Source of the DNA: an uncultured Actinomycetes bacterium
GTDB taxonomy: Bacteria; Actinomycetota; Thermoleophilia; UBA2241
Reading direction: 5' to 3'
DNA length: 64,000 bases
Assembly: GCA_963767005.1 (NCBI GenBank)
Contig: CAVYCN010000003.1
Coordinates: 1-64,000 of the forward strand
The notes beneath the pieces were generated by a model. The model did not search any database. It was given only the letters and a program-made list of their open reading frames with translations, and had not been told where the DNA came from. Positions 13,995-32,630 of this stretch are shown piece after piece; within the stretch, counting starts at the first letter, position 1; every line of letters begins with the position of its first letter. The position numbers were made by a program, and so were the translations under genes.

Positions 13995-14158
13995 CGGACG
14001 CCAGCCCTCACCGTCCGGTCCTCAAACTGTAGGGCAGCACCGGGAACAGGAGGGCTCCGTCTCTACCGCAGTCGTCGTGCGGTGTAACGGGTGATGGATC
14101 GTGATGATCCGTCGCCCGTCTTCTGCCCGTAGGGCCTGGTCCCGCTAGTGTCGTTTGC

Positions 14159-14308
14159 TCAGCTCATCGCCACCATCAGCGTGAAGCTCTGCGCCACGCT
14201 GCCGACCGAGTTGCTCGCGCTCAGGGTAATCGTGTAGCTGCCGGCTGTGCCCGCCGCCGGCGTGCCGCCGAGCGGGCCGACACCGAAGCTCAGACCATTG
14301 GGCAGGCT
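14159..14308 (-). pseudogene. C-terminal remnant of a putative-Ig (He_PIG) domain surface protein
   Basis: LPNGLSF...LGGTPAAGTAGSYTITLSASNSVGSVAQSFTLMV then stop; abuts the IS3 remnant. Confidence 0.65.
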
Positions 14309-14506
14309 CAAGGAAGCACAGATCCTGGTGGCCCACTGGCGCCGGCTCTACAACGGCCTGCGGCGCCACAGCGCGCGCGGTCGCCAACCGCCGGAGACGA
14401 TCGTCTGGTCGGGGTTCCCGCTCACAGACAACGCACCGCCGGTGCTCACCCCCGAGATGGACTTGGCACCATCATAGGAAGTGGACCACGCAATGGGGAC
14501 AGGTCA
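14305..14506 (+). mobile_element. IS3-family transposase C-terminal fragment and right inverted repeat
   Basis: LKEAQILVAHWRRLYNGLRRHSARG..PP integrase-core tail; terminus ...TGGGGACAGGTCA. Confidence 0.75.
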
Positions 14507-15625
14507 CTTCTGGACGGGCGCACCTTCGGCGTCGGCCTCGGCCGGGGCCGTCAGCCGTCCCGGACCCCTGGCATGCAGGAGTTCGCGCAAGGCGACCTGA
14601 GCAGCGCCGGCGAGCGGGATCGCAAGCAGCACGCCGACCACGCCGCCGAGCATGGCGCCGGCCAACGAGACGAGCAGGACGATGAGCGGCGACAAGACCA
14701 CGGTCCGGGCGTAGATCACGGGCGCCAGAAGGTGGTTCTCGGACTGTTGGTAGATCACGAAGTAGGCCACCAGGGCGACCGCCTGCGGCCAGCCGATCGA
14801 TAGCGCGACCAGGACGCAGAGCACGGCGCCGAGAGTCGCGCCGACCAGCGGGATGATATCGAGCAGGCCGACGGCCAGGGCGAGTGGCAGCGCGTAGGGC
14901 ACGCCCAGGATCGACATCGCCGCAAACGAGCCGACGCTGGCGAGCACGCTGATCAGCAGGTTGCCGGCCATGTAGCCGCTCACCGAGCGCTGCATGTGGC
15001 GCCCCACGGCGTCGACGCGCCCGCCACGCTCGCCCAGCGACGCCATCAACAGCCGCCAGGCGCGCGGCCCCTCGAGCAGCAGCATGAAGGTGATCGTTAC
15101 GACGCTCAGCACCGCGCCCAGGAGCGTGGCCGCCTGCGAGAACATCGAGGAGATCGTGCGCGGCCCTGCGATGAAGCGAAGCACACGCGCTGGCGTGACC
15201 GCGCCGATGCGGCGCTCGATGTCGAAACGCTGCTGCAGGAAGGCGAGCGGCCCGCCCGGCTTGAGAAGACTGTGGGCCAGATGCGGCAGGCCGCTCAAGA
15301 GTTGATCCGACTGGGTGGCGACAGGCACAGCCACCGCCACCACAATGGCGCCGACGACCGCGGCCGTGGCAAGTGTGATGAGGGTCGCGCCCAGCCAGCG
15401 CCGCACGTGGTGTCGCTCGAGCCAGGTCACGGCCGGTGCAACGGTCACGGCCAGCACGATCGCGATGAGTAGCCAGACGATGATTCGGCGCAGGTCCCAG
15501 ACCAGCAGGCCGAGGAGGGCGGCGCCGGCCACGACCGCCACGACGATCCCCGTCCGCAGAGCCAGCTCCGCGGGACTGACGACTCCTGCCCGTCTTGCTG
15601 AGGCGAGGTCCCTCGTCTCGGTCAT
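14504..15625 (-). CDS. AI-2E family transporter
   Basis: LDIIPLVGATLG, YQQSENHLLAPVI, GVLLAIP. Confidence 0.9.
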   Translation of the reverse strand: MTETRDLASARRAGVVSPAELALRTGIVVAVVAGAALLGLLVWDLRRIIVWLLIAIVLAVTVAPAVTWLERHHVRRWLGATLITLATAAVVGAIVVAVAVPVATQSDQLLSGLPHLAHSLLKPGGPLAFLQQRFDIERRIGAVTPARVLRFIAGPRTISSMFSQAATLLGAVLSVVTITFMLLLEGPRAWRLLMASLGERGGRVDAVGRHMQRSVSGYMAGNLLISVLASVGSFAAMSILGVPYALPLALAVGLLDIIPLVGATLGAVLCVLVALSIGWPQAVALVAYFVIYQQSENHLLAPVIYARTVVLSPLIVLLVSLAGAMLGGVVGVLLAIPLAGAAQVALRELLHARGPGRLTAPAEADAEGAPVQK

Positions 15626-15713
15626 GTGCCACTCACCCTCTCCACCGAGGCACGAGACCTACTCGGCCCGCACCTCTGCGCGACTAGCTGTCGATCGTCT
15701 TCGAGAGCTGTAA

Positions 15714-16388
15714 CTAGGCGGCCTTGTTCGGCCGTGTCTCGTTGACTTGCGCCTCGCCCTCGAAGCGCTTCTCGAGGCGTCTCATGGTGCGATGAAGATC
15801 GAGCAAGCGCAGACCGACACCGAATGAGAGCACACCCTGGATGATCAGGAAGGTGCCGACGAGCATGCCCAGCACCACGGCCGAGAAGGTCGGGTGGACG
15901 AGCACCAGGACGCCGAGGGCCGCAAGCGCGAGGCCCAAGACCAAAGCAGCGAGGCGCGGCTTGACCACGGAGTCCGTGACTGACCGGCAGACGTCGTAGA
16001 CGCCCCACGCGAGCAGGCTGATGCCCACGAAGATGGCCACGACGTAGAGGGTCGCGCCCGGCCAGGCCAGCGCGCAGGTGCCGAGCATGATCGAGGCGGT
16101 GCCGGCGACGATCGCAAGCCACGACCTCGGCCGACTCGTCGAGCCGATCGCGATCTCCGCCCCCCCGCTGCACAGCAGGAGCACACCGACCAGCGCGATC
16201 ATGGTCGAGACCGCGTTGATCTCAGAGGCCAGGGCAAATACGCCCAGAGCGATCACGACGAGGCCGAGTAGCACATGCGTCCACCAGGCGCCCGTTGCCC
16301 GCCTACCTACCCGGCGAGCAACGCCCATCGGTCCGAGCAATACGTAGTGCCTGCTGGCTGGTTCTCTGTCTGTCGACTGCGTTCCCAC
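15714..16388 (-). CDS. HdeD/DUF308 family membrane protein
   Basis: WW..VLLG start, six TM helices, LAWPGAT, repeated DUF308-like halves. Confidence 0.8.
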   Translation of the reverse strand: MGTQSTDREPASRHYVLLGPMGVARRVGRRATGAWWTHVLLGLVVIALGVFALASEINAVSTMIALVGVLLLCSGGAEIAIGSTSRPRSWLAIVAGTASIMLGTCALAWPGATLYVVAIFVGISLLAWGVYDVCRSVTDSVVKPRLAALVLGLALAALGVLVLVHPTFSAVVLGMLVGTFLIIQGVLSFGVGLRLLDLHRTMRRLEKRFEGEAQVNETRPNKAA

Positions 16389-16442
16389 GACCTTCCTCCT
16401 CTGGCTGTTGTGGCTTTGTGCGAGCTACTTATTGCGCACGAC

Positions 16443-16474
16443 AGGATGAGCAGGCATCCTCCCAATCGGATGAA
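16443..16474 (-). promoter_or_regulatory. 32-bp operator/promoter motif, copy 1
   Basis: Minus strand TTCATCCGATTGGGAGGATGCCTGCTCATCCT upstream of the hdeD-like gene. Confidence 0.75.
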
Positions 16475-16580
16475 CCAGGGGCGGTCGTGCCAATCGCTCC
16501 ATGCCTAGCGATGCAAGATGCTTCTCAGCGTCTACAATGGCGGCGAGAGAAGCCGCCCAGACAGCAGGGGGGAGGAGCTA

Positions 16581-19253
16581 GTGGGCAGCGGTCCGCCGGC
16601 TCGCGCTAATCGGTCAGGCAGCGGAAACAGATCTCCGACTGTTGCCCGCAGGGGACTGTTTGCGCGACTCTCGGCCAGCGGTCCTGCAGGAGTCATTTTA
16701 GTGTCGGCGCCGGCCGGCAGCGGCAAGACGGTTCTACTTCGCTCCTGGGTCGACGAGTCCGGCCTCGCCGACCGAGTCGCCTGGCTCACCGTCGAGCGAG
16801 ACCAGCGGGACCCGCAGCGGTTCTGGCTTGCGGTCGTCGACAGGCTACGCGCCACCACAGGCGCCGACGCGTTCGTCGAGAAGCTGACGCCTGCGCCCGA
16901 CTTCGACGGCCAGGCGCTCGTCGGACGCCTCCTCTCGGAACTCGGCTCGCTGGACGATCCAAGGGTGCTCATTCTCGACGATCTTCACGAGCTGAGATCC
17001 TCAGAGGCGCTCGCCCAGCTCGAACTCCTGCTGGCTCGCCGACCTGCGCAGCTTCACATCGTATTGGCCACCCGCCGCGACCCGCAGCTCGGCTTACACC
17101 GCCTGCGCCTCGCGGGCGAGCTGACCGAAGTGCGGGCCTCCGATCTGCGGTTCAGCCTCGATGAGACGCGCGAACTCCTCGTCGCCTCGGGAATCTCGCT
17201 CTCGGAGACGGCCGTCACCATGCTCCATGCGCGGACCGAGGGGTGGGTGGCCGGACTACGCCTCGCGGCGCTCTCGCTGCTCGGCAACTCCGACCCCGAG
17301 CGATTCGTCGCCGCATTCTCGGGCAGCGAGCGCAGCGTCGCCGACTACCTGCTCGCCGAGGTGCTCGAGCACCAGCCAGAAGATGTGCGGCGACTCCTGC
17401 TACGGACCTCGATCTTGGATCATGTGTGCGGTGCCCTCGGCGATGTCCTGACCGAAGCCACCGGATCGGAGCGCATCCTGCTTGAGCTCGAACAGGCGAA
17501 CGCGTTCGTCGTCGCCGTCGGCCCCGAGCGGACGTGGTTTCGCTACCACGCGCTCTTCGTCGACCTTTTGCGCCTCGAGTTGCGCCGCACCGAGCCGGGC
17601 GCTCTCGTGGGGCTGCACCGAGCCGCGGCGGCCTGGTTTGAGGAGCACGGGCGCGTGGTCGAAGCCATCCGTCACGCGCAGGCCGCCGAAGACTGGCCGA
17701 GAGCCGCTCGTATGGTCGCAGATCACAGCTTGACCCTCGCACTCGACGGTCAGGAGGCGACGGTGCATGCGTTGCTCGGGGCCTTTCCTGAGCGGGCACT
17801 CTCCGATGCGGAGCTGGCGCGAGCGTTTGCCTCTGATCAACTCACCTACGGGACGCTTGAGAGCGCGGACACGTACCTCTCCCTGGCAGCGAGACACGCA
17901 CTGGAGGTGGCTGACGATCGGCGGCACGGGTTCGAGGTCGCGCTCGGCATCACCCGGCTCTCCCTCGCCCGTCGACGGGGCGACTTCGGCTCTGTCCTCG
18001 ACGGGGTGGGGCCGCTGCTCGCCCCAGCGACTGCCGAAACGGCAGGCGAGATCGTGCTCGGCAACGACGCCAGGGCGTTCGCGCTGATGAACCTCGGCAT
18101 CATCGAGCTGTGGTCCTTCCGGGTCGCCGAGGCACAGGGGCATCTGAAGCAGGGTCTCGAGCTGGCCCGGCGGATCGCGCGCCCGTACATCGAGATCGGC
18201 TGTCTTGCTTACCTCGCCCTGGCTGCTGGCCAGCGCTCGTTCGTTCAGGGGCGAGCGCAATGCCGCGAGGCGATCGCGCTTGCCCAAACGCTTGGCTGGG
18301 AGGACGAGCCGATCACCTGCATCGCTCTGGCGACGATGGGTGCCGCTGCCGTGTCGGAGGCCCGCTTCGAAGAGGCCCGATACTGGCTCGAACGGGCCGA
18401 ACGCGGCCTGCGACCCGACCTCGACCCCGCCACAGCGCTTCTCATCTGCCTCGCGCAGGGCATGCAACATGTCGGCGAGGGCCGACTCGAGCAGGCGCTC
18501 GCAGCTTTTCGTTCCGCCGAGCAGTGTCAGACGAAGCTTGTTGCGCCGCAGGCCTTGATGGTCCTGACGCGCGAGTTCACCGTGCAGACTCTGTTGCGAG
18601 AGGGCGACTGCGCAGCGGCCCGGGCGACGTTGGCAGAGTTCTCGGATGATGGTGCCGAGTGGGGCGAGGTTCATGTTGCAACTGCCGCCCTGCATATCGC
18701 CGACGGGGACGCACAGGCAGCCGCCGATGTCCTCGCCCCCGTCCTTGCCAGGCGCACGCCGGTCCTTCTTGAGTTCACCGTCGTCAGCGCCGCCCTGCTC
18801 GATGCCGTCGCGCGCAACCTGCTCGGCGAGTCACAAGCTGCAGAAGCCGACATCGAACGCGCGCTCGACCTCGCTGAACCCGACGCGCACATCTTCCCGT
18901 TCGTGATGACGCCGGCCCGAGAGTTACTCGAACGCCACCCCCGGCACCGCACCGCCCACGCCGCGCTGCTGTCCGACATCCTGGACGTGCTCACCGGCTC
19001 GACGCTGCCCGTCCGAGCAGGTGAGCCTCCTGCGTTGTCCGAGGGCCTGAGCCGTAGTGAGCTCCGCGTGCTCCGCTACCTGCCGAGCAATCTGTCCGCC
19101 TCAGAGATCGCCTCTGAACTCTACCTGTCGACGAGCACAGTGAAGACGCACATGCTGCACATCTACACCAAGCTCGACGTGCATCGCCGCACCGAGGCCG
19201 TAGAGCGCGCCCGCGCGCTGGGTCTGCTTACGCCGCACGGCGCACACCGCTAG
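16581..19253 (+). CDS. MalT-like LuxR family transcriptional regulator (STAND ATPase, TPR, HTH)
   Basis: APAGSGKT, ILDDLH, RTEGWVAGLRL, WFRYHALF, ELYLSTSTVKTHMLHIYTKL; GGAGGAG RBS. Confidence 0.95.
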   Translation: MGSGPPARANRSGSGNRSPTVARRGLFARLSASGPAGVILVSAPAGSGKTVLLRSWVDESGLADRVAWLTVERDQRDPQRFWLAVVDRLRATTGADAFVEKLTPAPDFDGQALVGRLLSELGSLDDPRVLILDDLHELRSSEALAQLELLLARRPAQLHIVLATRRDPQLGLHRLRLAGELTEVRASDLRFSLDETRELLVASGISLSETAVTMLHARTEGWVAGLRLAALSLLGNSDPERFVAAFSGSERSVADYLLAEVLEHQPEDVRRLLLRTSILDHVCGALGDVLTEATGSERILLELEQANAFVVAVGPERTWFRYHALFVDLLRLELRRTEPGALVGLHRAAAAWFEEHGRVVEAIRHAQAAEDWPRAARMVADHSLTLALDGQEATVHALLGAFPERALSDAELARAFASDQLTYGTLESADTYLSLAARHALEVADDRRHGFEVALGITRLSLARRRGDFGSVLDGVGPLLAPATAETAGEIVLGNDARAFALMNLGIIELWSFRVAEAQGHLKQGLELARRIARPYIEIGCLAYLALAAGQRSFVQGRAQCREAIALAQTLGWEDEPITCIALATMGAAAVSEARFEEARYWLERAERGLRPDLDPATALLICLAQGMQHVGEGRLEQALAAFRSAEQCQTKLVAPQALMVLTREFTVQTLLREGDCAAARATLAEFSDDGAEWGEVHVATAALHIADGDAQAAADVLAPVLARRTPVLLEFTVVSAALLDAVARNLLGESQAAEADIERALDLAEPDAHIFPFVMTPARELLERHPRHRTAHAALLSDILDVLTGSTLPVRAGEPPALSEGLSRSELRVLRYLPSNLSASEIASELYLSTSTVKTHMLHIYTKLDVHRRTEAVERARALGLLTPHGAHR

Positions 19254-19262
19254 CAGCCGTCA

Positions 19263-19294
19263 TTCATACGATCCGGACGACGCCGGCTCATCCT
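19263..19294 (+). promoter_or_regulatory. 32-bp operator/promoter motif, copy 2
   Basis: TTCATACGATCCGGACGACGCCGGCTCATCCT, 21 bp before the ATG at 19316. Confidence 0.75.
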
Positions 19295-19315
19295 CTTGGG
19301 CGGCATGCTCGCGCC

Positions 19316-19780
19316 ATGGACCGATCAGCGCAACGAGGACAGGAGCTCGACAGGCGGGTTGAACTTGAGGGCCGCGTGCGGCGGGTGCTGGCCACCCAGG
19401 CAGCCGATGACGCTCGCTGCGACGAGAACCTCACTCCCGGTCAGCGCGCTGCAGCCCGCGTCGCTCAAGCAGGCGGCAGCTGGACTTTCGTCTTTGTGTT
19501 CCTCGGGGTGATTGCCCTCTGGATCTGCCTGAACACGGTCGGATGGTCACGCCACTGGGACGTCTACCCTTTCATTCTGCTGAATCTGGTGCTCTCCGTC
19601 CTGGCCGCCGTGCAGGCGCCGCTCATCATGATGAGCCAGAACAGAGACCAGGACCGTGACCGTCGGCACGCGGAGGCCGAGTTTCGTTCCAGCGTGCGAG
19701 CCGAGATCCTGCTCGAGCACCTTACGACCGAAATCGAAGACCTCAGGCGGCGCTTGGACGGTCCGTCCACGCACGCCTGA
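19316..19780 (+). CDS. DUF1003 domain membrane protein
   Basis: GGSWTFV, WDVYPFILLNLVLSVLAAVQAPLIMMSQNR. Confidence 0.92.
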   Translation: MDRSAQRGQELDRRVELEGRVRRVLATQAADDARCDENLTPGQRAAARVAQAGGSWTFVFVFLGVIALWICLNTVGWSRHWDVYPFILLNLVLSVLAAVQAPLIMMSQNRDQDRDRRHAEAEFRSSVRAEILLEHLTTEIEDLRRRLDGPSTHA

Positions 19781-19796
19781 GAGAGGGTAGCCCACA

Positions 19797-21272
19797 TTGA
19801 CAGTCGCGGCGGACGTGGTCCGGATACTCGGTCTTGGCATCCCTTGGTGGATCGCTGCGCCGCTGCTCGTCTACTGGCTGGTTGTCATCGTGCTGGTCAT
19901 TTCCGACGACCGCGAGCCTGCCAGCACACTGCTCTGGCTCGCCGCTCTCGTCTTCCTGCCCGGCGTCGGCGTCGTGCTCTTCCTGTTCTTCGGGCGCGAC
20001 TGGAAGGTGATCACGGCCCGCAGGCGCTGGGCTCAGTCCTATGTCGGAATGGTGCTCGCTGCGATGCGCCCGGTCTACGATCACAACCAGGCCGCCGACC
20101 GGCTGTTCCGGGAGCGCTACCCCCGCGGCCTCGCCACCGACATCGCCACCACGATCCAGCAGGAGAACGGCTCGCGCCCACTTCCCGCCGAGAGCGTCGA
20201 GGTCTTCGCCGACGGCGCCACATACTTCGCTCGTCTTGAGCAGGACCTGGCGAGCGCCCGCAGCTTCGTCCACCTCGACTTCTTCATCTGGGAGCACGAT
20301 GCACTCACGACGCGCATCACCGAGGTCCTGCTGGAGCGGCTGCGGGCCGGCGTCGAGGTGCGCATCGTCTACGACCTGCTGGGCAGCATGCGGTACAGCA
20401 AGGCGGAGCTCAGGCGGCTGAAGGCCGGCGGCGCCCGGGTCAGCGCCGACGTCTGGCAGCTCTTCAAGCTCAACTACCGCAACCACCTGAAGATCGCCGT
20501 GATCGACGGCACGATCGGCTTCACCGGCGGAGCCAACCTCGGCCAGGAGTACATCGACGGGGGCCGCAGGTTCCCCACCTGGCGTGACACCAACATCCGC
20601 ATCACGGGGCAAGCCGTGGCCGAGCTGCAGAAGCTCTTTGCCATGCGCTGGTTCGAAAACGAGCGCGAGGACGTCCTGCAGGAGCGCTATCTGCCGCTCG
20701 CCGTCGATGCGCGTCCGGAACGCTGCGTGCCCACCCAGCTCGTCGCCCACACGATCGAGCTACCCTGGGAGGCCGCGCGCCGCGCCCACATGATCGCCAT
20801 CTCGCGGGCCGAACGGACGCTGCGCATCCAGTCGCCCTACTTCGTGCCCGACCGCGCCACCTACGATGCCATGATCAACGCCGCGCTGAGCGGCGTCGAC
20901 CTCAAGCTCATGATGACCGGCTGGGTCGACCAGCACCTGCCCTTCTGGGCGGCGCAGACCTACTACGAGCCGCTGCTGCGTGCCGGCGGGCACATCTACC
21001 AGTACACCGCCGGCTTCTTCCACGCCAAGACAATCGCCGTCGACTCGAGCATCTGCGCCGTTGGCACCATGAACCTCGACAACCGGAGCCTGCGGCTCCA
21101 CAAGGAGCTCATGGAGTGGATCTACGACGCCGCGCTCACCAGGCGGCTCGAGGAGATCTTCGACGCCGACCTTGAGCAGTGTCGCGAGGTGACCCTCGAT
21201 GACGTTCGCTCGGTCGGTCCGCTGAAGCACTTCCGCAACTCCTGCGCGCGGCTGTTCTCGGCCGAGATCTGA
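19797..21272 (+). CDS. cls: Cardiolipin synthase
   Basis: Two N-terminal TM helices (PLDc_N); HKD motifs RNHLKIAVID and FHAKTIAVD. Confidence 0.92.
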   Translation: MTVAADVVRILGLGIPWWIAAPLLVYWLVVIVLVISDDREPASTLLWLAALVFLPGVGVVLFLFFGRDWKVITARRRWAQSYVGMVLAAMRPVYDHNQAADRLFRERYPRGLATDIATTIQQENGSRPLPAESVEVFADGATYFARLEQDLASARSFVHLDFFIWEHDALTTRITEVLLERLRAGVEVRIVYDLLGSMRYSKAELRRLKAGGARVSADVWQLFKLNYRNHLKIAVIDGTIGFTGGANLGQEYIDGGRRFPTWRDTNIRITGQAVAELQKLFAMRWFENEREDVLQERYLPLAVDARPERCVPTQLVAHTIELPWEAARRAHMIAISRAERTLRIQSPYFVPDRATYDAMINAALSGVDLKLMMTGWVDQHLPFWAAQTYYEPLLRAGGHIYQYTAGFFHAKTIAVDSSICAVGTMNLDNRSLRLHKELMEWIYDAALTRRLEEIFDADLEQCREVTLDDVRSVGPLKHFRNSCARLFSAEI

Positions 21273-21382
21273 CGGCGCAGATTCTGCCGCAACGCCAAGC
21301 CATGCCGTCGATCGACGATCTGGGTCTAACCCGGTCCGAAACGGGGGCAGTCCGACCCGGGCACACTCGCCGGCAGCCATCG

Positions 21383-21414
21383 TTCATACCATCCGGTCGA
21401 TGCCGGCTCATCCT
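21383..21414 (+). promoter_or_regulatory. 32-bp operator/promoter motif, copy 3
   Basis: TTCATACCATCCGGTCGATGCCGGCTCATCCT, 21 bp before the ATG at 21436. Confidence 0.75.
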
Positions 21415-21435
21415 TTTCGGGGCGATGCTGGCGTC

Positions 21436-21681
21436 ATGGACACATCAGCACAGCCACTGAACTACGAGATCCACATCCGCGGGGCGCTGGGCGAGACGCT
21501 GCTCAGTGCCTTTCCCGGTCTGGATGCCACGCGACGGGACGGCGAGACGGTACTCAGCGGGGTGCTGTCCGACCAATCCGCTCTCTTCGGCGTGCTTGCC
21601 CAGATCGAGGCGCTTGGCCTCGAGCTGCTCGAGATCCGTAGCGTCCGGTCCACGAAGGAGCCTATCAGGCGGAAGAAGTGA
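21436..21681 (+). CDS. Small conserved hypothetical protein (ferredoxin/ACT-like fold suspected)
   Basis: YEIHIRGALGETLLSAFPGL...TVLSGVLSDQSALFGVLAQIEALGLELLEIR, a type recalled next to actinobacterial MalT-like genes. Confidence 0.75.
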   Translation: MDTSAQPLNYEIHIRGALGETLLSAFPGLDATRRDGETVLSGVLSDQSALFGVLAQIEALGLELLEIRSVRSTKEPIRRKK

Positions 21682-21783
21682 CGGCGGCTCAGCGCCCGAG
21701 GCGCACGGCTTCGGGCTTACCCAGATAACCGGCACCGATGCGGTCGCCAAGAGACTTCGGTGCGAACCACAGGAGGCACAACG

Positions 21784-23863
21784 ATGACTGAACAACGACA
21801 TGCGGAAGAGCACGACACGTCTCAAGCGTCGTCCAAGGAAAGCAGAGCCCGCAACCGTGGAGAACCGACGGGACCGGCTTGGCGCCTGGAGGGCAAACCC
21901 GCTGGCGGCAAGAGTGGGTCCGGCCAGCAGCTGCCGGGCGAGCCCCCGCCCGGTCTGCGGTGGGGCCGGGTCCTGTTGGTCCTGCTGGGGCTGCTCGCAC
22001 TCAACTGGCTGATCGCCAGCGTGTTCTTCAACCAGGCGACCATCCTGCCGGTCTCCTACAGCTTCTTCCGCCAGGAGGTGCAGGCCGGCAACGTGACCCA
22101 GATCACCGCCACCGGCAACGCCGTCCAAGGCACCTTCAAAACGGGCGTCACATCCTCGCAGGCAAACGGCCAGAAGTCCGCGCAGAACGCGGCCACCTAC
22201 ACCCGTTTCCAGACACAGCTGCCCGGCTTCGGCACCGGTGACCTCATGCCGCTTTTGCAGTCCAAGGGCGTCCAGGTGACCGCCCACCCACAGGGGACTC
22301 CGCACTGGGAGACGCTGCTCATCTGGGTGGCTCCGGCGCTGCTCTTCTGGGGTCTGCTGGTCTGGGGGTCACGGCGCGCGCAGGCGGCCGGCGGTGGGGC
22401 GGAAGCGGCATGATCTCCGTGTTCGGCAAGTCCAAGGCCCACCGCTACGAGGGCAGCGAGCAGCGCACCACCTTCTCAGATGTGGCCGGTATCGACGAGG
22501 CCAAGGAGGAGCTCTCCGAGGTCGTCGACTTCCTGCGCCGTCCCGAGCGCTACCGCAAGCTCGGCGCCCGCATCCCGCGCGGCGTGCTGCTCTCCGGACA
22601 ACCCGGCACCGGCAAGACGCTGCTCGCCCGGGCCGTGGCCGGCGAGGCCAAGGTGCCCTTCTTCTGGCTGAGTGCCTCGGAGTTTGTCGAGATGTTCGTG
22701 GGCGTCGGCGCGAGCCGCGTGCGTGACCTCTTCAAGCAGGCCAAGGACTCGGCCCCGGCCATCGTCTTCATCGACGAGCTCGACGCCATCGGCCGCTCGC
22801 GCTCGGCGGGCGGCGCCATGGGCGGTAACGACGAGCGCGAGCAGACCTTGAACCAGATCCTCACCGAGATGGACGGCTTCACCGGCCAGGAAGGCGTCAT
22901 CGTGATGGCCGCCACCAACCGTCCCGAGGTCCTCGATTCCGCCCTGCTGCGTCCGGGGCGCTTCGATCGGCGCATCGTCGTCAACCCGCCCGACCAGAAG
23001 GGCCGCGCGGCGATCGTTGCTGTGCACACCTCGCGAGGTGCCCCTGGCCGCCGACGTCGACCTCGAGCGGATCGCCGCAGACACGCCCGGGCATGGCTGG
23101 CGCCGACCTTGCCAACCTAGTCAACGAAGCCGCCCTGGCGGCTGCGCGGCGCGGCGAGCAGGCCGTCCATGGCCAGGACTTCTCAGACGCTCTGGAGCGC
23201 ATCATTCTCGGCTCGGCGCGGCGTCTCATCCTCTCGCCGCTGGAGCGCGAGCGTACCGCCTACCACGAGTCAGGTCATGCCTTGCTCGGCATGTTGCAGC
23301 CCGGTGCCGATCGCGTGCGCAAGATCACGATCGTGCCCCACGGCCAGGCCCTCGGGGTCACCTTCCAGAGCCCGACCAGCGACGTCTACGGCTACGACGC
23401 CTCCTATCTGAAGGGCCGCATCACGGGCGCCCTGGGTGGACGCGCCGCCGAGGAGCTCATCTACCACGAGACCACGACGGGGCCCGAGAACGACCTCGAG
23501 CAGGCCACGGCGATCGCCCGTCAGATGGTGGGCCGCTGGGGCATGAGCGAGGCGGTCGGGCCGGTCAGCGTGCTGCCGCGCGACGGCCAGCAGAGCTTCT
23601 CGTTTGACGCATCGGCACCCTCTGACGAGACCCGCAAGCTGGTCGACGACGAGGTGCGACGGATCCTCGACGACTGCTCGGGCAGCGCGAGCAAGGTGCT
23701 GGCCGACAACCGCGACAGGCTCGACGCCCTGGCCCACGCCTTGCTCGAGCGCGAGACGCTCGACGAGGAGGAGGCCTACGCCATCGCGGGCGTCGCGCAC
23801 ACCAAGAGCGAGGGGGCCGAGCAGGCCACGGCGGCTGTGGCCGTCGATGCTGCGGTGAGATGA
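21784..23863 (+). CDS. ftsH: ATP-dependent zinc metalloprotease FtsH paralog, frameshifted near 22400 and 23030-23090
   Basis: Two TMs, [54 protein letters not shown]. Confidence 0.92.
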
Positions 23864-24019
23864 GGCTAACGGACCAGGGCTGAGGCGACGTATGTCGCAG
23901 AAGTCAGAAGTCCGGCTCCACGCCGGGGAGGTGCTCGAGATAAGGCGACGCGTCAAGGTGGCACGATGCGCCACGACAGCGAATGGTCAATGAGACAACA
24001 CAAACGAGAGGACCCGGAC

Positions 24020-24337
24020 ATGAACGAGAAGGCAAAGCAGACCACCGAGCGGGCCAAGGCCAAGGCCGCCGAGATCGTCGAGAAGGCAGAGGCTCAGGGG
24101 GCCGAGCTGATGGAGCTCGCCAAGGCGAAGGGGGCCGACCTGCGCGAGACGGCCAAGAAGCAGGCGGCCGACCTGCGCGAGACGGCGCGAAGGGACGCAG
24201 CCGAACTGCGCGAGAAGGCCAAGAAGCAGACGGCCGACCTGCGCGAGACGGCCAAGAAGCAGACGGCCGACCTGCGCGAGAAGGCGCAGAAGGAGGCCGG
24301 CGAACACCTGGCCAACATCAGGAGCAAGGTCAGCTAG
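24020..24337 (+). CDS. Small hydrophilic protein with 11-aa tandem repeats (LEA/apolipoprotein-like)
   Basis: ADLRETAKKQA-type repeat five times; GAGGA RBS; followed by a hairpin. Confidence 0.75.
   Translation: MNEKAKQTTERAKAKAAEIVEKAEAQGAELMELAKAKGADLRETAKKQAADLRETARRDAAELREKAKKQTADLRETAKKQTADLREKAQKEAGEHLANIRSKVS
24134..24298 (+). repeat. Five 33-bp coding tandem repeats
   Basis: GCCGACCTGCGCGAGACGGCCAAGAAGCAG-type units at 24134, 24167, 24200, 24233, 24266. Confidence 0.9.
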
Positions 24338-24359
24338 GTCGGAGCGAATCTCCGCCCGT

Positions 24360-24401
24360 AAGGAAGGGGCGGCCCGCTGGAAGCTGGGCCGCCCCTTCCT
24401 T
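24360..24401 (+). terminator. Strong hairpin, probable terminator
   Basis: AAGGAAGGGGCGGCCC-N10-GGGCCGCCCCTTCCTT, 16-bp stem. Confidence 0.7.
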
Positions 24402-24426
24402 CTGAAACGACTAGGAGGTGATATCG

Positions 24427-25116
24427 ATGATCCCGCTCACAGGCGATCTTCCACAGCGACGGTTCCCTATCGTCAACGCGACGCTGATCGCGATGAACTT
24501 CGCGGTCTTCGTCCTTTACGAGTTGCCGAACCCGAATGGCGCGATCCTGCACGCCTCGTTCTATCCGGCCACGCTCAGAGGCTGGCACGGGCCGGAGCCC
24601 TGGGAGGTGAGCTGGATCACGGCCATGTTCTTGCACGCCGGCTGGAGCCACATCCTCGGCAACATGCTGTTCCTCTTTGTCTTCGGCAACGACGTGGAAC
24701 GGGCCTTCGGTCGGCTGCGCTACCTCGTCTTCTACTTCGCCGGCGGCTTTGCTGCGATGCTGATGCAGGCGGCCATGACGCTGCTCTTCTCGAGTGCGGC
24801 CGCGGCGCGCATCCCCTGCCTCGGGGCGAGCGGTGCCATCGCGGCGGTGCTGGGCGCCTACTTCGTCCTCTACCCGCGCTCGCGCATCGTCCTGTTCCCG
24901 ATCCCCATCGTCCTGCCCGCCTGGCTCTTTCTGGGGTTCTGGTTCCTCTACCAGTTCGTCATGGCCATGAGCGGCCTGCTCGCGCCGGCCAACAACGGTG
25001 TCGCCTTCTTCGCGCATGTAGGCGGGTTCATCTTCGGACTCATGGTCACGAAGATCCTCCTGGACTCGAGCGGGCTCACCTGGACACCGAGGTACGGGAG
25101 GTGGGCTGATGTGTGA
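24427..25116 (+). CDS. Rhomboid family intramembrane serine protease
   Basis: TAMFLHAGWSHILGNMLFL, GASGAI, VAFFAHVGGF. Confidence 0.93.
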   Translation: MIPLTGDLPQRRFPIVNATLIAMNFAVFVLYELPNPNGAILHASFYPATLRGWHGPEPWEVSWITAMFLHAGWSHILGNMLFLFVFGNDVERAFGRLRYLVFYFAGGFAAMLMQAAMTLLFSSAAAARIPCLGASGAIAAVLGAYFVLYPRSRIVLFPIPIVLPAWLFLGFWFLYQFVMAMSGLLAPANNGVAFFAHVGGFIFGLMVTKILLDSSGLTWTPRYGRWADV

Positions 25117-25196
25117 CAGCGGGGTCCTGAAGCTTCCGGGCTGGAACGTCCTCAGCCCCTGGTTCCTTTGCCAGTCCGTCATATCAGCGTACTTCG

Positions 25197-26336
25197 GTGG
25201 CTGATCGCGACCTCAAGCGAGCTTCGTGTCAGCCGTTCACGCCGCCCGCTGGCGACCGACAGCCGGCACCGACGGCATCGGCGCGACACGCGGCGGTCCG
25301 CAGACTCCTCCTGCGCCGCGGCCTGCCGCTCGTGGTGACCGGCGTCTGTCTCTATCTCCTGCTGCCCAGCCTGCTCGCGGTCTTCGGCTCGTGGCACTCG
25401 CTAGCGCATCTCGCCTGGCCGTTTGCTGTCCTCTGCCTGGCCAGTGAGTCCGCTAGCTACGTCTGCCTGTGGGAGCTCGACCGCATCGCTCTGCGCGCAC
25501 ACCGGTGGTTTGTCGTCATCGCCGCGCAGCTCAGCGCCAACGCCGTCGGTCGCATCCTGCCGGGCGGCGGGGCCACCTTCGCGGCGTTTGCGGCCTCGAT
25601 GCTCAAGAAGGCCGGCTTCGACCCCGGCCAAGCTGTCACGGCGCTCGGGACCTCGAGCACGCTTCAGCTCGCGACGACCTTCGCCCTGCCCGTGTTCGCG
25701 CTGCCCGCCATCCTCGCCGGCGCGCCGGTCAGCCGCAGCCTGGTGACCGCCGCCTACCTCGGCCTGGTCGTCGTCCTGCTGCTCGCCGCGGCCGGCATAG
25801 CCGCGTTTGCAAGCGACGCGCCGCTCGAGCTTGCGGGCAAGGCGATCCAGCGGCTGGCGAACGCGACGATCCGACGACACAGTCCGATCAGCGGGCTCGA
25901 TACAAGCCTGCTGCAGCAACGCGACATCATGTGCCAGACCCTGAGGGAGCGGTGGAAGGCAGCGACGCTGGCCGCTGCTGGCAACACCGGCTTCGACTAC
26001 CTTGCGCTGCTGTTGGCGCTGCGCGCCGTGGGCGCCGACCCGCGACCCTCACTGGTCCTGCTCGCCTACGTGGCGGCTGCACTGGTGGCGCTGGTACCGC
26101 TCACCCCCGGAGGCCTGGGCTTCGTCGAGGCCGGGCTCGTCGGGATGTTCACACTCGCCGGCGTGCCGGGCCACGAGGCGCTGGCGGCGACGCTGCTCTA
26201 CCGCCTCGCCTCCTTCTGGCTGCCGCTCCCGGCCGGGGGCCTCTCCTACGTGCTGTTCCAGCGCCGCTACGGCCGCCTTCATCAGCCCCCTGAAGCGGAG
26301 CACGCTGAGGCCTGTGTGATGGCACGAGATCGCTAG
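25197..26336 (+). CDS. Lysylphosphatidylglycerol synthase TM / flippase-like (YbhN) protein
   Basis: PLTPGGLGFVE, ATLLYRLASFWLP. Confidence 0.85.
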   Translation: MADRDLKRASCQPFTPPAGDRQPAPTASARHAAVRRLLLRRGLPLVVTGVCLYLLLPSLLAVFGSWHSLAHLAWPFAVLCLASESASYVCLWELDRIALRAHRWFVVIAAQLSANAVGRILPGGGATFAAFAASMLKKAGFDPGQAVTALGTSSTLQLATTFALPVFALPAILAGAPVSRSLVTAAYLGLVVVLLLAAAGIAAFASDAPLELAGKAIQRLANATIRRHSPISGLDTSLLQQRDIMCQTLRERWKAATLAAAGNTGFDYLALLLALRAVGADPRPSLVLLAYVAAALVALVPLTPGGLGFVEAGLVGMFTLAGVPGHEALAATLLYRLASFWLPLPAGGLSYVLFQRRYGRLHQPPEAEHAEACVMARDR

Positions 26337-26353
26337 CGCAAGGAGGATCCAGA

Positions 26354-27202
26354 TTGACCGAGTCGCAGCAGCCTACCGCCGCGGTCCCGTCGCCGAGTCA
26401 GGAGGAATCGCTCGCCCGGCGGCGCTCGGTGGCCACCATCGCCGAGGCGACGCACACCGCTTCCCAGCTGCGCTCGATGCTGCAGTTCCACGACGACCGC
26501 TACCGCTGGCGTCGCCTGTTCGCGGAGCTGCTCGGCACCTTCATGTTGGTCTTCGTGGCTGCCGGCGGCGGCATCGTCAAGGCCAGGTTCGGTGGCAGCG
26601 TAATCCCGCAGTTCGTCTTAGTGACGGCGCCCGGCATGATGGTGCTCGGCATCATCCTGTTCATGGGGGCCGTCTCGGGCGCCCACCTCAACCCAGCAGT
26701 CAGCCTGGCCTTTGCCATGCGCGGCGACTTTCCCTGGAAGCGCGTGCCGCTCTACATCGTGGCGCAGTTCGTGGGCGCCGTCCTGGCCACGCTGCTGCTC
26801 GTGGCGTTGCTTGGCAGGCAGGGCACGGCCGGCCTCACCCTGCCCGGGCGGGGGATCAGCGGCACGACCGCGCTGCTGTGGGAGATCGTGCTCAGCGCCG
26901 GTCTTGTGAGCGTCATTCTCGGCACCGCGTCGGGCGCTCAGGCGGTTGGCTGGGGCGCCGCCATCGGCGTGGGGAGCTTCATCGCGCTGGCCGGCATGAT
27001 CGGGGCTCCGGTGAGCGGCGCCTCAATGAACCCGGCGCGCTCACTGGGCCCAGCCATCGTCCTCTGGCACTTCAGCGACTGGTGGGTCTACCTGATCGGG
27101 CCGCTGCTCGGTGCCGTGATCGCCGTGGGCATCGCCTACGTGCTGCGCGGGCGGGGCGGCGACGAGACCGCGAGGCGTGCGGGTTCGGGGGCGCTGGGCT
27201 GA
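26354..27202 (+). CDS. Aquaporin (MIP family channel)
   Basis: SGAHLNPAV and SGASMNPARS NPA boxes; AELLGTF. Confidence 0.95.
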   Translation: MTESQQPTAAVPSPSQEESLARRRSVATIAEATHTASQLRSMLQFHDDRYRWRRLFAELLGTFMLVFVAAGGGIVKARFGGSVIPQFVLVTAPGMMVLGIILFMGAVSGAHLNPAVSLAFAMRGDFPWKRVPLYIVAQFVGAVLATLLLVALLGRQGTAGLTLPGRGISGTTALLWEIVLSAGLVSVILGTASGAQAVGWGAAIGVGSFIALAGMIGAPVSGASMNPARSLGPAIVLWHFSDWWVYLIGPLLGAVIAVGIAYVLRGRGGDETARRAGSGALG

Positions 27203-27340
27203 GGCGGCCCGCCGTGACAGCCAGGGACGACCCACCAGCGGTGCCGTCGCCTCGCCACGAAACTGCCCGGCGAGCTGCGTTTCAGGAGAAGCATCTGTTC
27301 CATACCCATCTCATCTGAAGCTCAGATAAAGGAGCGAGCG

Positions 27341-27988
27341 ATGAAACTGCTGGTGATAGGCGCGAGCGGCAAGACGGGGCATGAGGTGGTGCATCAGGCG
27401 CTGGCGGCCGGACACGAGGTGACCGCGTTTGTGCGCGATCCGGCACGACTGGCCGTCCGTGACGCACGCCTCTCCATCGCCACCGGCGACGCACGCAACA
27501 CCGACGACCTGCGACGCGCTCTCCAGGGGCAGGACGCCGTGATCGGCACCCTGGGCGGGCGGCCCCGACAGGCACTGGTCGATAGGCTGCGTGGCAGGCC
27601 GGACCACGTCATGGAGCGCTCGACGACGGCACTGGTCGCGGCGGCGAGCAAGGCCGGAGTCCGGCGCGTCGTGTTTCTGTCCACGTTCATGCTGGCCGAG
27701 AACTTTAGGGCGGGCATCCTGACGCCACTCATCGCCTTCTACAGGCCGATGAACGACGACAAGCGCGCCGGCGAGCAGGCCCTGCGGCGCTCTCAGCTGG
27801 ACTGGACGATCGTCTACGCCACGCGGCTGACCGACGGCCAGCGCTCCGGTCGAGAACGGCTCGTGCCGGCGACGGAGACCGTCACGGCGCGCAACGCCGT
27901 CTCGCGGGCCGACGTCGCCGCCTTCCTGCTCGCGCAGATCAACAAGGAGACGAGCATCGGTGAGTGCGTCGTGCTGACGGCGACCTGA
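27341..27988 (+). CDS. NAD(P)H-binding oxidoreductase (flavin reductase/BVR-B-like SDR)
   Basis: GASGKTG, HEVTAFVRDP, LDWTIV, VSRADVA. Confidence 0.9.
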   Translation: MKLLVIGASGKTGHEVVHQALAAGHEVTAFVRDPARLAVRDARLSIATGDARNTDDLRRALQGQDAVIGTLGGRPRQALVDRLRGRPDHVMERSTTALVAAASKAGVRRVVFLSTFMLAENFRAGILTPLIAFYRPMNDDKRAGEQALRRSQLDWTIVYATRLTDGQRSGRERLVPATETVTARNAVSRADVAAFLLAQINKETSIGECVVLTAT

Positions 27989-28305
27989 GGAGGCACGGTA
28001 AGTGACACGCCCGCCTTGCGGCCGACCAAGCCTCGACGCGCGCGCGCCTACACGAGCGACCGGGCAGGCGCCCGGCTCGGCACAAAGTGGCCGTTCCCAG
28101 CAGCGACCGGAGGGTCCTGTGCACAACGGTCAGGCTGCACGTCGCAGGGCAAGAAGGTTTGTGACGAACTGGACGACTCTCGAACCCTCGGGGGGGCGAC
28201 GTTTGGCGACTCCTCGATGGGCTGGCCGAAAACTCGCCGGGCAATCGCTCTGGGCCAGGCCATCAGCTCTCTTTCTCTTGTGATTCGCGGCGTGACACAC
28301 GCACG

Positions 28306-28337
28306 TTCATCCGATTCGAAGGATGCGTGCTCATCCC
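28306..28337 (+). promoter_or_regulatory. 32-bp operator/promoter motif, copy 4
   Basis: TTCATCCGATTCGAAGGATGCGTGCTCATCCC upstream of the DUF1269 gene. Confidence 0.75.
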
Positions 28338-28402
28338 TCCTCCGGTGACTATACAACCACCAAGGCATCAGACAGCTACGAGAGCAAAAGGGAGTGGTTG
28401 AC

Positions 28403-28987
28403 ATGCGCAAGGATCACAACGTCATAGCAGTCACCTTCGCTGAGGAGAGCAAGGCGTATCAGGCACTGAGCGAACTGCGCCAGGCAGACCGCGACGGCCG
28501 CGTCGACGTGCGCGGCGCGGCGATCGTCCAGCGGCAGCGCGAGGGGAACATCAGCATCAAGGAGGGCGACGAGAGCCTGATCGGCACCGGCGTGGCCGGT
28601 GGCGGCCTCATCGGCATGCTGGTCGGCGTGCTCGGTGGCCCGCTGGGAATGCTGCTCGGCTGGGGCGCCGGCATGGCCGTCGGAGCGGCTGTCGACCTCG
28701 ATCGTGCAGACGAAGCCGACGATGTCGTCAGCCAGATGAGCAAGACGATACCGGTCGGTGGCACGGCGATCATCGCTGAGGTCGATGAGTCCGCGGTCGA
28801 GGTGGTCGACGGCGAGATGGCCGCCCTCGATGGGACCGTCACCCGGCGCCCGGCCGCAGAGGTCCTGGCCGAGCTGGAAGCAGCGGAGAAGGCCGCCAAG
28901 GCCAGCGCAAAGGAGGCACGCCGGGTGCTAAGGGAGGCCAAGAAGGCGGAACGCGCCGAGAAGCACGGGCAGAGCAAGGAGAAGTGA
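28403..28987 (+). CDS. DUF1269 family glycine-zipper membrane protein
   Basis: VIAVTF..ESKAYQAL, GGLIGMLVGVLGGPLGMLLG, GGTAIIAEVDE. Confidence 0.85.
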   Translation: MRKDHNVIAVTFAEESKAYQALSELRQADRDGRVDVRGAAIVQRQREGNISIKEGDESLIGTGVAGGGLIGMLVGVLGGPLGMLLGWGAGMAVGAAVDLDRADEADDVVSQMSKTIPVGGTAIIAEVDESAVEVVDGEMAALDGTVTRRPAAEVLAELEAAEKAAKASAKEARRVLREAKKAERAEKHGQSKEK

Positions 28988-29093
28988 GACGAGCGCCTCT
29001 CCGCCCTCAAGGACAGGCGGAGCCGTCACGGCAAGGGTTCGGCCTAGGCCGAACCCGCTGCCGGTCGTCACACGCAAAGGATCGTCACAAGGC

Positions 29094-29124
29094 AAAGGGC
29101 TCCACTGTCTTGGTGGAGCCCTTT
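29094..29124 (+). terminator. Intrinsic terminator-like hairpin
   Basis: AAAGGGCTCCAC-N7-GTGGAGCCCTTT. Confidence 0.6.
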
Positions 29125-29159
29125 GAACAAAGCGTGTCATGGCGGGCTCTCTTGGAACA

Positions 29160-29583
29160 GAAGTAGCCCTGGACCGACGATCCGCAGGACCGCCGCCACG
29201 AGATCATGGTCGACAACCCGGCGCGACTCAAGCCAGGCCCGCGACGCCGGCAGTCGTGACTTCGAGGTGGTCAAGATCCGCTGTACCGGCGACGTGATCC
29301 TGAGCGACAAGGAGGCCGGCGGTGTCGACCCGGTCGAGGGCACCGGCCGCGTGAGCCCGGCGATCGCAGGCCGGCCACCTACGTCGACTCCTACGCCTGC
29401 AATGGAGGACTGATCATGCCCCTGTTCGATGATCCAAACGACGGATCGGCCGCGGCGGTGCTGCGGCGCCCGTATCCGGACCGCCGCAGCGTGACGGTCA
29501 CTGGTCGCGAGAACGTGCTGGGCGGCAGCAACGTGCACTGCATCACGCAGCAGCAGCCCTGGGAGGCCTACGATGAGTCATGA
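29160..29583 (+). pseudogene. aguA: Agmatine deiminase C-terminal remnant
   Basis: Across frames: WTDDPQD, GVDPVEGT, ATYVDSYACNGGLIMPLFDDPND, GGSNVHCITQQQP; N-terminal half absent. Confidence 0.85.
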
Positions 29584-30643
29584 CCCCGACGTCTCGACCA
29601 CGCTGGGCGGAGACGAGCGCGTCGTGCTCGTGCTCACCCCCTCGACCAGCCTGTGCCGCCTCCGCGACCGCGACTTTGTGACCGACGAGGACTACACGGC
29701 GCACGAGCTGCTCGACCTGCTGCGGCTCGCGGCTGCGCTCAAGCAGGTCCGCCGGCGGCAGCGCGTGACGCCGTTCCTGCCCGGCGCTCGCCTTGCCATG
29801 ATCTTCGAGGCGGTCGGGGCGGCCGCGACGCGCACGAGCTTCGAGAACAGCATCGCCGAGCTCGGCGGCAACGCTCTCTACCTGCGGCCCGGCGAGATCC
29901 ACCCGTCGGGGCGCGAGACGATCGGCGACACGGCGAAGACCCTATCGCGCATGAACGATGCGATCGCGATCAGTGCCACGAAGGACAAGACCGTCGATGC
30001 GCTCGCGGCGGCGACGACGGTGCCGGTCATCAGCGGCATGGACGGCGACCGGCACCCCTGTCAGGCGATGAGCGACGCGCTTACCATCGTCGAGCACGCC
30101 GGCCGCCTGAAGGGGGTCAACTTCACCTACCTGGGCGACGCCAGCCCCGTATGCAACTCGCTTTCGACCACGCTCACCAAGCTCGGTGTGAATGTGACCC
30201 TGGTAAACGCCCCGGGCTACGAGGTCGCCGCCGACCGCCAGGAGCGGGCGTTCGCCTACGCGCGGGAAAGCGGCGGCTCGTTCCGCGTGGTCCACGACCC
30301 CGAGAAGGCTGTGCGCAACGCCGACTTCATCTACACCGATCGGTGGTGGCGGACCGGCCAGGAGGCCGAGCGCGAGCAGCGCCTGCGCATCTTTCGGCGC
30401 TTTCGGGTCAACGGCGAGTTCCTGCGCAAGGCGCCGCCCGGCGTGCGCTTCATGCATTGTCTGCCCGCGATGCCAGGCGAGGAGGTGACCGACGAGGTCA
30501 TCGACCGCGAGGCCTCGATCGTCTTCTCCCAGGCAAAGAACCGTCTGCACTTCCAGAAGGCTTTGCTGCTCGCCCTGATCGGCATCGACGAGCCGCCGGC
30601 CGACCTGGAGCTGCAGACGATCGCCGACGCGCTCCTTCGCTGA
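29573..30643 (+). CDS. Putrescine carbamoyltransferase-like protein, degenerate
   Basis: Follows the aguA remnant; ATRTSF (for STRT), HPCQ, YTDRWW, HCLPAMPGEEVTDEVID, QAKNRLH. Confidence 0.8.
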   Translation: MSHDPDVSTTLGGDERVVLVLTPSTSLCRLRDRDFVTDEDYTAHELLDLLRLAAALKQVRRRQRVTPFLPGARLAMIFEAVGAAATRTSFENSIAELGGNALYLRPGEIHPSGRETIGDTAKTLSRMNDAIAISATKDKTVDALAAATTVPVISGMDGDRHPCQAMSDALTIVEHAGRLKGVNFTYLGDASPVCNSLSTTLTKLGVNVTLVNAPGYEVAADRQERAFAYARESGGSFRVVHDPEKAVRNADFIYTDRWWRTGQEAEREQRLRIFRRFRVNGEFLRKAPPGVRFMHCLPAMPGEEVTDEVIDREASIVFSQAKNRLHFQKALLLALIGIDEPPADLELQTIADALLR

Positions 30644-30772
30644 ACGGCGCAAGCGTACCGAATCGTCCGGGAGCGCCGCGCTGTGGTCGCAGACGGCGGT
30701 GAACGGTTTCTTGCCACGCACCATTTCCCAGGGCCTTCTTTGGCGCACCATGCACCTCTAGTTCACTGCGCC

Positions 30773-30854
30773 ATGGAGGCAAAGCGCAAGCTATTCGAAG
30801 CCAACCTGCGCCTTGGTCGTGTCCTTCGCCAACCGCTACGTCGGCCAAGGCATG
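30773..30854 (+). pseudogene. Fragment of sigma-70 region 2.1
   Basis: [27 protein letters not shown], a diverged inverted copy of about 32052-32132. Confidence 0.8.
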
Positions 30855-30908
30855 TGGTCCACGGCCCGCCAACCGGGGGGTGTCGCGGTCTGGCGCGCAC
30901 CCGCCCGC

Positions 30909-31373: not shown

Positions 31374-31394
31374 TGGGCTCGCCTCCTGCTGCCG

Positions 31395-32353
<959 letters not shown>

Positions 32354-32357
<4 letters not shown>

Positions 32358-32563: not shown

Positions 32564-32630
32564 CCGTGACTCCTTTCGTTGCGTGAGCCGGCAGCGGGGC
32601 GAGCGCGCCCGGATGGCGGGCGCCCAGCCA

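Follow-up and report, generated by a model that had tools for sequence, protein, structure and literature searches.

Four copies of a three-box motif around a MalT-like STAND-LuxR regulator gene in an uncultured Actinomycetes bacterium: candidate activator-dependent promoters

The DNA analyzed here, 64,000 nucleotides of an uncultured Actinomycetes bacterium (Thermoleophilia, UBA2241; assembly GCA_963767005.1, contig CAVYCN010000003.1, positions 1 to 64,000; hereafter the window), carries a gene for a MalT-like STAND activator of 890 aa (16581..19253, +), which starts with GTG behind GGAGG and lies between the first two of four copies of a 31-bp motif. Zero-mismatch matches to the motif occur at 16444-16474 (-), 19263-19293 (+), 21383-21413 (+) and 28306-28336 (+), each oriented toward its downstream gene, in agreement with the original prediction made from the letters of this DNA. 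No fifth match was found in the window at up to three mismatches, 100 shuffles gave no match, and a scan of the 3.44-Mb genome at up to five mismatches added a single one (four mismatches, contig C8), so that the cluster is unique to the regulator locus and not scattered over the genome. In the copies, TCAT(A/C)C and GGnnGA are separated by five free bases, and a stretch of seven, opening with TGC or CGC, connects GGnnGA to a final TCATCC. The left two thirds form a palindrome, TCAT(A/C)C-N5-GGnnGA, which had been overlooked before and which, in all four copies, differs from TCAYCC halves by one to three mismatches over 12 bases; its halves are boxes 1 and 2 below, and the final TCATCC is box 3.

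The regulator contains an NTPase with Walker A (GSGKT) and Walker B (LILDD) motifs and AAA_22/AAA_16 matches above cut-off, followed by a MalT-type TPR region (PF17874, 57 bits) and a LuxR helix-turn-helix (PF00196, 48 bits), both above cut-off as well. It aligned to the MalT chain of 8bob (E 2.9e-36) and is 29% identical to Escherichia coli MalT in the NTPase part and 31% identical in the C-terminal part; on the NCBIfam MalT model NF003420 it reached 253 bits, under the cut-off of 537. By analogy with MalT, it would function as a ligand- and ATP-dependent oligomerizing activator. The hexamer TACAAT at 16533-16538 may be the -10 element of its own gene. Other MalT-like matches are present in the window genome, including two with an NTPase domain (C10 and C11), and a scan blind to box 3 found no site near these two.

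A -10-like hexamer of the form nAnnnT stands 10 bases after box 3, and in copies 2 and 3 an ATG follows six bases later. Site 2 has TCATAC at -52 to -47, GGACGA at -41 to -36 and TCATCC at -28 to -23, counted with the A of the ATG at 19316 as +1, and its -10-like hexamer is CATGCT (19304..19309, +); site 3 (TCATAC-N5-GGTCGA, TGCCGGC, TCATCC) has the same three box positions and GATGCT (21424..21429, +), again 6 nt before an ATG, at 21436. In both, 22 nt lead from the last C of TCATCC to the A of ATG, which corresponds to the 21 nt claimed earlier for a 32-bp version of the motif, and the palindrome ends 35 nt before the +1 predicted from the -10 signature and the ATG. Site 1 (TCATCC-N5-GGAGGA, TGCCTGC, TCATCC) points away from the regulator toward an hdeD-like gene; its -10 position, placed by analogy, reads AATAAG (16428..16433, -), with A-11 present and no T-7, and is the weakest of the four. 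A site pointing away from the regulator occurs at the same place in the related loci L041, L045, L056, L128, L132 and L190. The predicted start of site 1 lies near 16421 (-), in front of GAGGAGG and a GTG at 16388. Site 4 (TCATCC-N5-GAAGGA, TGCGTGC, TCATCC) is followed by GACTAT (28347..28352, +), with a predicted start near 28359, and the transcripts of copies 1 and 4 would thus have leaders, each with a ribosome-binding site.

Metagenome contigs were scanned by the motif alone, which yielded 119 stretches; 79 loci with 80 sites are listed, and 53 sites were left after removal of near-duplicates. With the window sequence excluded, A and T stood at the -11 and -7 offsets in 43 of these 53 sites, compared with 0-5 at 13 other shifts, and ATG or GTG occurred at +1 or +2 in 28 of them. 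In the primary-sigma -10 element, A-11 and T-7 show the strongest conservation. As the -10 signature and the start codon keep fixed offsets in sites found by the motif only, copies 2 and 3 are likely to start leaderless transcripts, as the original prediction had suggested.

Copies 2 and 3 agree at 15 of 22 positions in the spacer and at 17 of 27 at the start of the coding sequence (5-9 and 5-11 for the other copy pairs). Because the spacer and the first codons are also shared, these two copies are not independent, and they look like a local duplication of promoter plus first codons. In many relatives, the small gene that follows site 3 here lies directly 3' of the regulator; with the shared flanks, this suggests that copy 2 is probably the duplicate and dates from the arrival of DUF1003-cls between regulator and small gene. 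The common flanks, and the integrase and transposase remnants 16-19 kb away, could also suggest that the motif is a repeat, a mobile-element end or an RNA structure unrelated to the regulator. That explanation is largely refuted, and we give it next to no credence, in view of the fixed distance to the -10 signature and start codon, the linkage to the regulator described below, and the Rfam covariance models, which had no match at gathering score in 14000-33600. Since the motif lies upstream of the predicted start, it would not be part of these transcripts.

A scan of 14000-31000 for sigma-70 consensus promoters found none (1.1 expected). Among three-box sites, position -12 is C or G in 19 of 19 and never T, and the spacing is constant; of 27 two-box sites, 10 carry T-12 and 17 have a spacing shorter by 1 bp. 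The promoter scan bears on a reading in which the regulator represses the promoters and is relieved by ligand. The boxes do span -52 to -23, and the text available for the LAL-family protein SCO6993 reports it as a negative regulator (PMC9628970). However, with no consensus promoter found in 14000-31000 there would be little to repress, and the Actinoplanes relative discussed below is an activator; we consider repression very unlikely. Separately, in metagenome loci L130, L134, L144 and L197, three-box sites come with a near-consensus -10 element at an unchanged offset (TAACAT, TATGAT, TACTAT), and no regulator gene is visible there.

Across genomes, the distribution of the motif follows that of the regulator. 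In a set of 41 genomes (the window genome and 40 relatives), an orthologue of the regulator with 48-75% identity was found in four of the 40 relatives. Matches with at most one mismatch were confined to four of the 41 genomes, namely the window genome and the three holding 61-75% orthologues, and all 13 such sites lie on the contig of the regulator; the remaining orthologue-bearing relative has a degenerate site with a perfect third box. A position weight matrix served only for finding sites elsewhere, its scores for the four window copies being circular. Among the 53 metagenome sites, 23 have the regulator in the locus and 32 have the regulator or the small gene, many contigs being short; at loci of at least 5 kb, the regulator is present in 10 of 18. 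In a sample of the phylum, the motif occurred in 14 of 401 genomes (control: 1), ten of them from a single family (f14), and MalT-like genes were present in 11 of the 12 new motif-bearing genomes, but also in six of seven motif-negative genomes of that family. An exact motif match in viral contigs lacks both the -10 signature and a regulator and looks like a chance match, and the top palindrome-plus--10 match outside the cluster (G000, C13:25182, -; 22.2 bits) is without box 3. TCATCC is a MalT-type box, and the sequence patterns together make it very likely that the four copies are sites of the adjacent STAND-LuxR protein, which would bind them, as had been proposed for the TCATCC-like boxes.

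The third box is concentrated in one branch of these regulators. In a FastTree phylogeny of 81 near-full-length proteins (supports SH-like only, after Shimodaira and Hasegawa), the window regulator falls within a clade of 18 rows with SH-like support of 100. A test scan whose model comprised the palindrome plus the -10 element, and which was therefore blind to box 3, recovered sites with box 3 in 15 of the 18; on inspection, the other three have box 3 with 0-1 mismatch, and it is present in all eight clade rows that were found by protein alone. Over 24 clade sites, a few of which came from a model that included box 3, perfect matches number 21 for box 3, five for box 1 and one for box 2. Outside the clade, 18 rows have the palindrome and -10 element but no box 3, two have one three-box site each (L093, L265), and 43 have no detected site. 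A Streptomyces plasmid locus that had not been used before (L294; 48% relative) has the three-box layout leading into the small gene, as seen by eye and below the scan threshold.

With moderate confidence, we propose that the four sites are activator-dependent promoters in which three hexamer boxes are offered to the helix-turn-helix of the regulator. A ligand would bind the TPR sensor region and lead to ADP/ATP exchange and oligomerization, as in E. coli MalT. Two protomers would then occupy the degenerate palindrome, placed upstream of the predicted -35 position with its center at -44, the promoter-proximal one on GGnnGA at -41 to -36, which in strand and place equals the activating box of E. 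coli malPp and of Actinoplanes. A third protomer on TCATCC at -28 to -23 would make the oligomer straddle the -35 region and help the primary-sigma polymerase use a poor promoter, with neither TTGACA nor T at -12. Transcription would begin 22 nt beyond the third box and, in sites 2 and 3, at the ATG itself. In evolutionary terms, the ancestral unit may have comprised the regulator, a site and a small ACT-like protein, with envelope and general-stress-type cargo recruited variably and site 2 arising by duplication of site 3 as DUF1003-cls came in.

The position of box 3 allows another role. Under a limiting-site explanation, activation would come from the palindrome dimer, and a protomer at box 3 would close the promoter at high activity or when unliganded. 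Box 3 lies at -28 to -23, where polymerase wraps the spacer, and two-box promoters are activated without it, according to the Actinoplanes text (PMC7567727). Yet of the three boxes the third matches the consensus best, the two palindrome halves having decayed, and the -10 element is poorer in three-box promoters; because of this conservation and the poorer -10, a site needed for activation fits better than a brake, which appears rather unlikely. We regard it as quite unlikely that box 3 is read by some further protein in concert with the regulator (the small ACT-like protein or a sigma factor, for instance). Box 3 does stay TCAYC while the palindrome drifts, as in L052, where TCGCAA-N5-TTGCGA is accompanied by TCACCA, and 16 of the 18 clade rows come with the small gene. 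However, box 3 is identical to the half-site of the palindrome and changes along with it, being TCATCC in the window and TCACCC in family f14, the small gene also lies beside many regulators without a detected three-box site, the model of the small protein contains no helix-turn-helix, and the nearby sigma-70 and MarR genes (31.4-33.5 kb), considered as box binders, were found in none of 19 related loci. L052 is of interest in its own right: at 11200-11255 both palindrome halves are changed while box 3, the -10 spacing and the leaderless start are retained, and the recognition helix of its regulator reads TVNTH instead of TVKTH, a natural test case for specificity.

Several observations weigh against activation through three boxes, or against the linkage on which it builds. 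The motif itself was the entry route of nine of the 18 clade rows, and related genomes are non-independent samples. Three-box sites occur in 10 of 17 genomes of family f14, most of which hold only 35-47% relatives, and perfect palindromes plus a third box lie beside some sister-branch regulators, so that the layout is not exclusive to the clade. Two-mismatch singletons elsewhere number ten, against one control match. At eight of the 18 motif-found metagenome loci of at least 5 kb there is no regulator; three of these (L157, L174, L196) have no -10 signature either and resemble chance matches. As for occurrence without the regulator, sites with at most one mismatch lie only on regulator contigs in the 41 genomes, whereas the motif-bearing genome G361 gave no regulator match at E<=1e-30. 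In addition, site 1 is without T-7, a protein at -28 to -23 could block polymerase rather than help it, and the Actinoplanes paper, as far as its text was available, contains no direct binding assay (PMC7567727).

The first gene behind site 3 encodes the small protein, an unnamed product of 81 aa (21436..21681, +) with a predicted ferredoxin-like (ACT/RAM/HMA-like) fold. It has 1,847 relatives of similar length and belongs to no Pfam or NCBIfam family: 120 members tested gave no Pfam ACT match, and 13 of the 120 were weakly BON_like. In the Atlas it falls in unnamed clusters only. Its structural model (predicted local distance difference test, pLDDT, 79.8) has the order E8-15, H20-23, E30-34, E37-44, H47-60 and E63-70, that is, beta-alpha-beta-beta-alpha-beta; the best structural match reached Z 7.7 (root-mean-square deviation 5.0, 76 aligned), with ACT tied with YebC, Lrp/RAM and HMA, and Foldseek gave no match at E<=0.001. 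Nine copies of the small gene in eight of the 41 genomes all lie within about 4 kb of a MalT-like gene, and the gene is found beside 38 of 56 long regulators and one of 23 short ones. It is present in 16 of the 19 related loci, compared with 1-5 of 19 for any cargo gene, and by this count it is the most constant predicted target gene. Since partner proteins hold E. coli MalT inactive, a role as modulator of the regulator is a reasonable guess. A complex prediction with regulator residues 18-886 and small-protein residues 4-73 scored 0.09 (mark 0.32) and carries no weight either way. Among 120 listed longer proteins with the small domain, 17 also match the regulator; these were not counted as fusions because at the 11 junctions inspected truncated or frameshifted regulators appear to have been read through into intergenic DNA, and most other fusions are to varied enzymes.

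Gene labels given earlier for the remaining targets were borne out by Pfam and NCBIfam, with HdeD (NCBIfam) and DUF1269 under the curated cut-offs. Site 1 precedes a DUF308/HdeD-like membrane protein (15714..16388, -; PF03729; NCBIfam HdeD 24.8 bits, cut-off 189) and an AI-2E family transporter (14504..15625, -; PF01594), which is likely co-transcribed with it. Behind site 2 lie a DUF1003 protein (19316..19780, +; PF06210), whose first codons resemble those of the small protein, and a cardiolipin synthase (19797..21272, +; TIGR04265, above cut-off). The ftsH gene that follows the small gene is split into three overlapping open reading frames (ORFs; 21760..23863, +: 21760-22413, 22410-23120, 23093-23863) by two frameshifts and is either a pseudogene or an assembly error. 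It is one ORF in L137, L178, L147 and L041 and also split in L045, and contigs from four DNA runs cover related strains, one of which differs by a short insertion near the first break. Next comes a Lys/Ala/Glu-rich protein of 105 aa (24020..24337, +) with 11-residue repeats and no Pfam match, present in four of 19 related loci, which on our own reading of the sequence appears LEA-like. Site 4 precedes a DUF1269 membrane protein (28394..28987, +; PF06897 24.4 bits, cut-off 26.9), which also stands behind a site in L045, L056 and L147.

The regulon may be smaller than the original prediction had drawn it. A G+C-rich hairpin of 19 bp (24360..24401, +) lies behind the 105-aa gene; it has no U run and was not picked by a U-tract scan, it folds with z -4.5 (none of 200 shuffles as well), and it is possibly a terminator bounding the site-3 transcript. 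The rhomboid, flippase-like (LPG synthase TM), aquaporin (MIP) and NAD(P)-binding genes (24418..27988, +) follow it without a site of their own and for these two reasons may be outside the regulon, although the first three had been counted in. The function label 'membrane stress' is plausible but unproven, as each cargo gene occurs in only 1-5 of 19 related loci and ftsH is frameshifted. Genes behind sites in other genomes encode DUF308, DUF1269, AI-2E, BON, SHOCT, DUF6325, ABC1 kinase, sulfatase and SfLAP, mostly envelope proteins. Neither the four window targets nor the 62 ORFs scanned downstream of sites include a gene for maltose uptake or breakdown.

Around the locus, 4302-8893 (-) holds an arginine-deiminase-like gene, an amino-acid permease and a carbamoyltransferase fragment, gene types that the Actinoplanes region has as well, with no upstream site here. 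About 400 bp past DUF1269, a carbamoyltransferase gene is immediately preceded by a C-terminal remnant of an agmatine/peptidyl-arginine deiminase (29401-30643, +). An extra sigma-70 factor of RpoD/SigB type, under all equivalog cut-offs, is encoded at 31395-32357 (-), and an Fe-S protein like the iron-only hydrogenase large subunit at 40898-42190 (-). The region 44245-51813, with a split integrase, a Mu-type transposase fragment, a DNA methylase and a terminase large subunit, is a decayed mobile element. The whole window has about 67% G+C compared with about 71% for the genome, and no tRNA was found in it.

The original prediction also held that no operator was characterized for this group. 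This was wrong, as a MalT site in Actinoplanes SE50/110 has been published: the text of that study gives TCATCC-5-GGATGA, located 34.4 nt from 17 start sites, and reports deletion and overexpression data by which a MalT-like protein activates (PMC7567727). It further describes a region with DUF1269, AI-2E, arginine deiminase and carbamoyltransferase genes, a regulon responsive to maltose and growth phase, and GGA(T/G)GA as the E. coli MalT box (PMC7567727). The window locus resembles the Actinoplanes one, as far as that text goes, in the palindrome, which would end about 35 nt before the start here as well, in a MalT-like gene inside the cluster, in DUF1269 and AI-2E cargo (with DUF308 there in a related genome), in nearby arginine deiminase, carbamoyltransferase and amino-acid permease genes, and in the lack of maltose genes. 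The two loci differ in that the palindrome here is degenerate, with a near-perfect third box in the spacer, and in the number of sites, four against 17. In E. coli malPp (NC_000913.3), a sense-strand GGATGA lies 22 bp before a -10-like hexamer (the gap in the window is 23 bp), with two more boxes upstream. STAND architecture, the hexamer GGA(G/T)GA, the strand and nearly the -10 distance of the proximal box, and several boxes per promoter are common to both, whereas malPp has its extra boxes upstream, in direct repeat at a distance of 13 bp and with none of them in the spacer, and the window targets include no mal genes. Because the Actinoplanes site and regulon and the malPp box match, the palindrome, its position and the type of cargo were already known. 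The third box at predicted -28 to -23, in the -35/-10 spacer, and the small partner gene would be additions beyond the published operator, specific and testable. Both, and the leaderless starts, are absent from the Actinoplanes text, promoter figure aside (PMC7567727). We found no description of the third box or the small protein for this group in the literature, most subscription papers being outside reach; a weak third box could be present in Fig. 2 of PMC7567727.

Other activators offer partial likenesses. The repeats of lambda cII flank the -35 hexamer. Both cII and MotA of phage T4 are described, in the text available for them, as binding near -30 or to the face of the DNA that lies opposite sigma region 4; this is a likeness of position only, as their folds are unrelated to that of the regulator and MotA needs AsiA (PMC6755090, PMC7419079). 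AfsR, a NOD-TPR activator of Streptomyces, is reported to activate from a box that covers -40 to -19 and thereby reaches into the spacer, a precedent for activation from this place, and differs in its OmpR-like SARP domain and 11-bp direct repeats from the LuxR domain and the palindrome plus one box of the window (PMC10936776). ComA of Bacillus subtilis is similar in having a LuxR/NarL-type helix-turn-helix and an inverted repeat with further half-sites nearer the promoter, but it is a response regulator and not a STAND protein, its hexamer is another one, and a fourth half-site is described in the text concerned (PMC4797271). As for the small protein, the partner proteins that hold E. coli MalT inactive are described in PMC10427625, as far as its text was available.

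Soil and peat Actinomycetota abound in MalT-like STAND regulators, with at least 7,996 relatives, and we found a motif-level description in the literature for only one actinobacterial member. As a tentative extension of the three-box proposal, possible rather than probable, a STAND-LuxR clade widespread in Actinomycetota would grip its promoters with three protomers, the strongest box lying in the spacer, and would remodel sigma region 4 in an AfsR-like rather than a class II manner; its first leaderless target, the ACT-like protein, would feed back as a ligand-sensing inhibitor or co-activator, a counterpart of MalK, MalY and Aes. The promoter grammar of the clade (three boxes, 10 bp, a weak -10 element and +1) would predict targets and starts from sequence alone, and it would allow the way in which a STAND oligomer interacts with RNA polymerase to be tested directly. 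In addition, the missing modulator of these regulators has a concrete candidate in the unnamed small protein.

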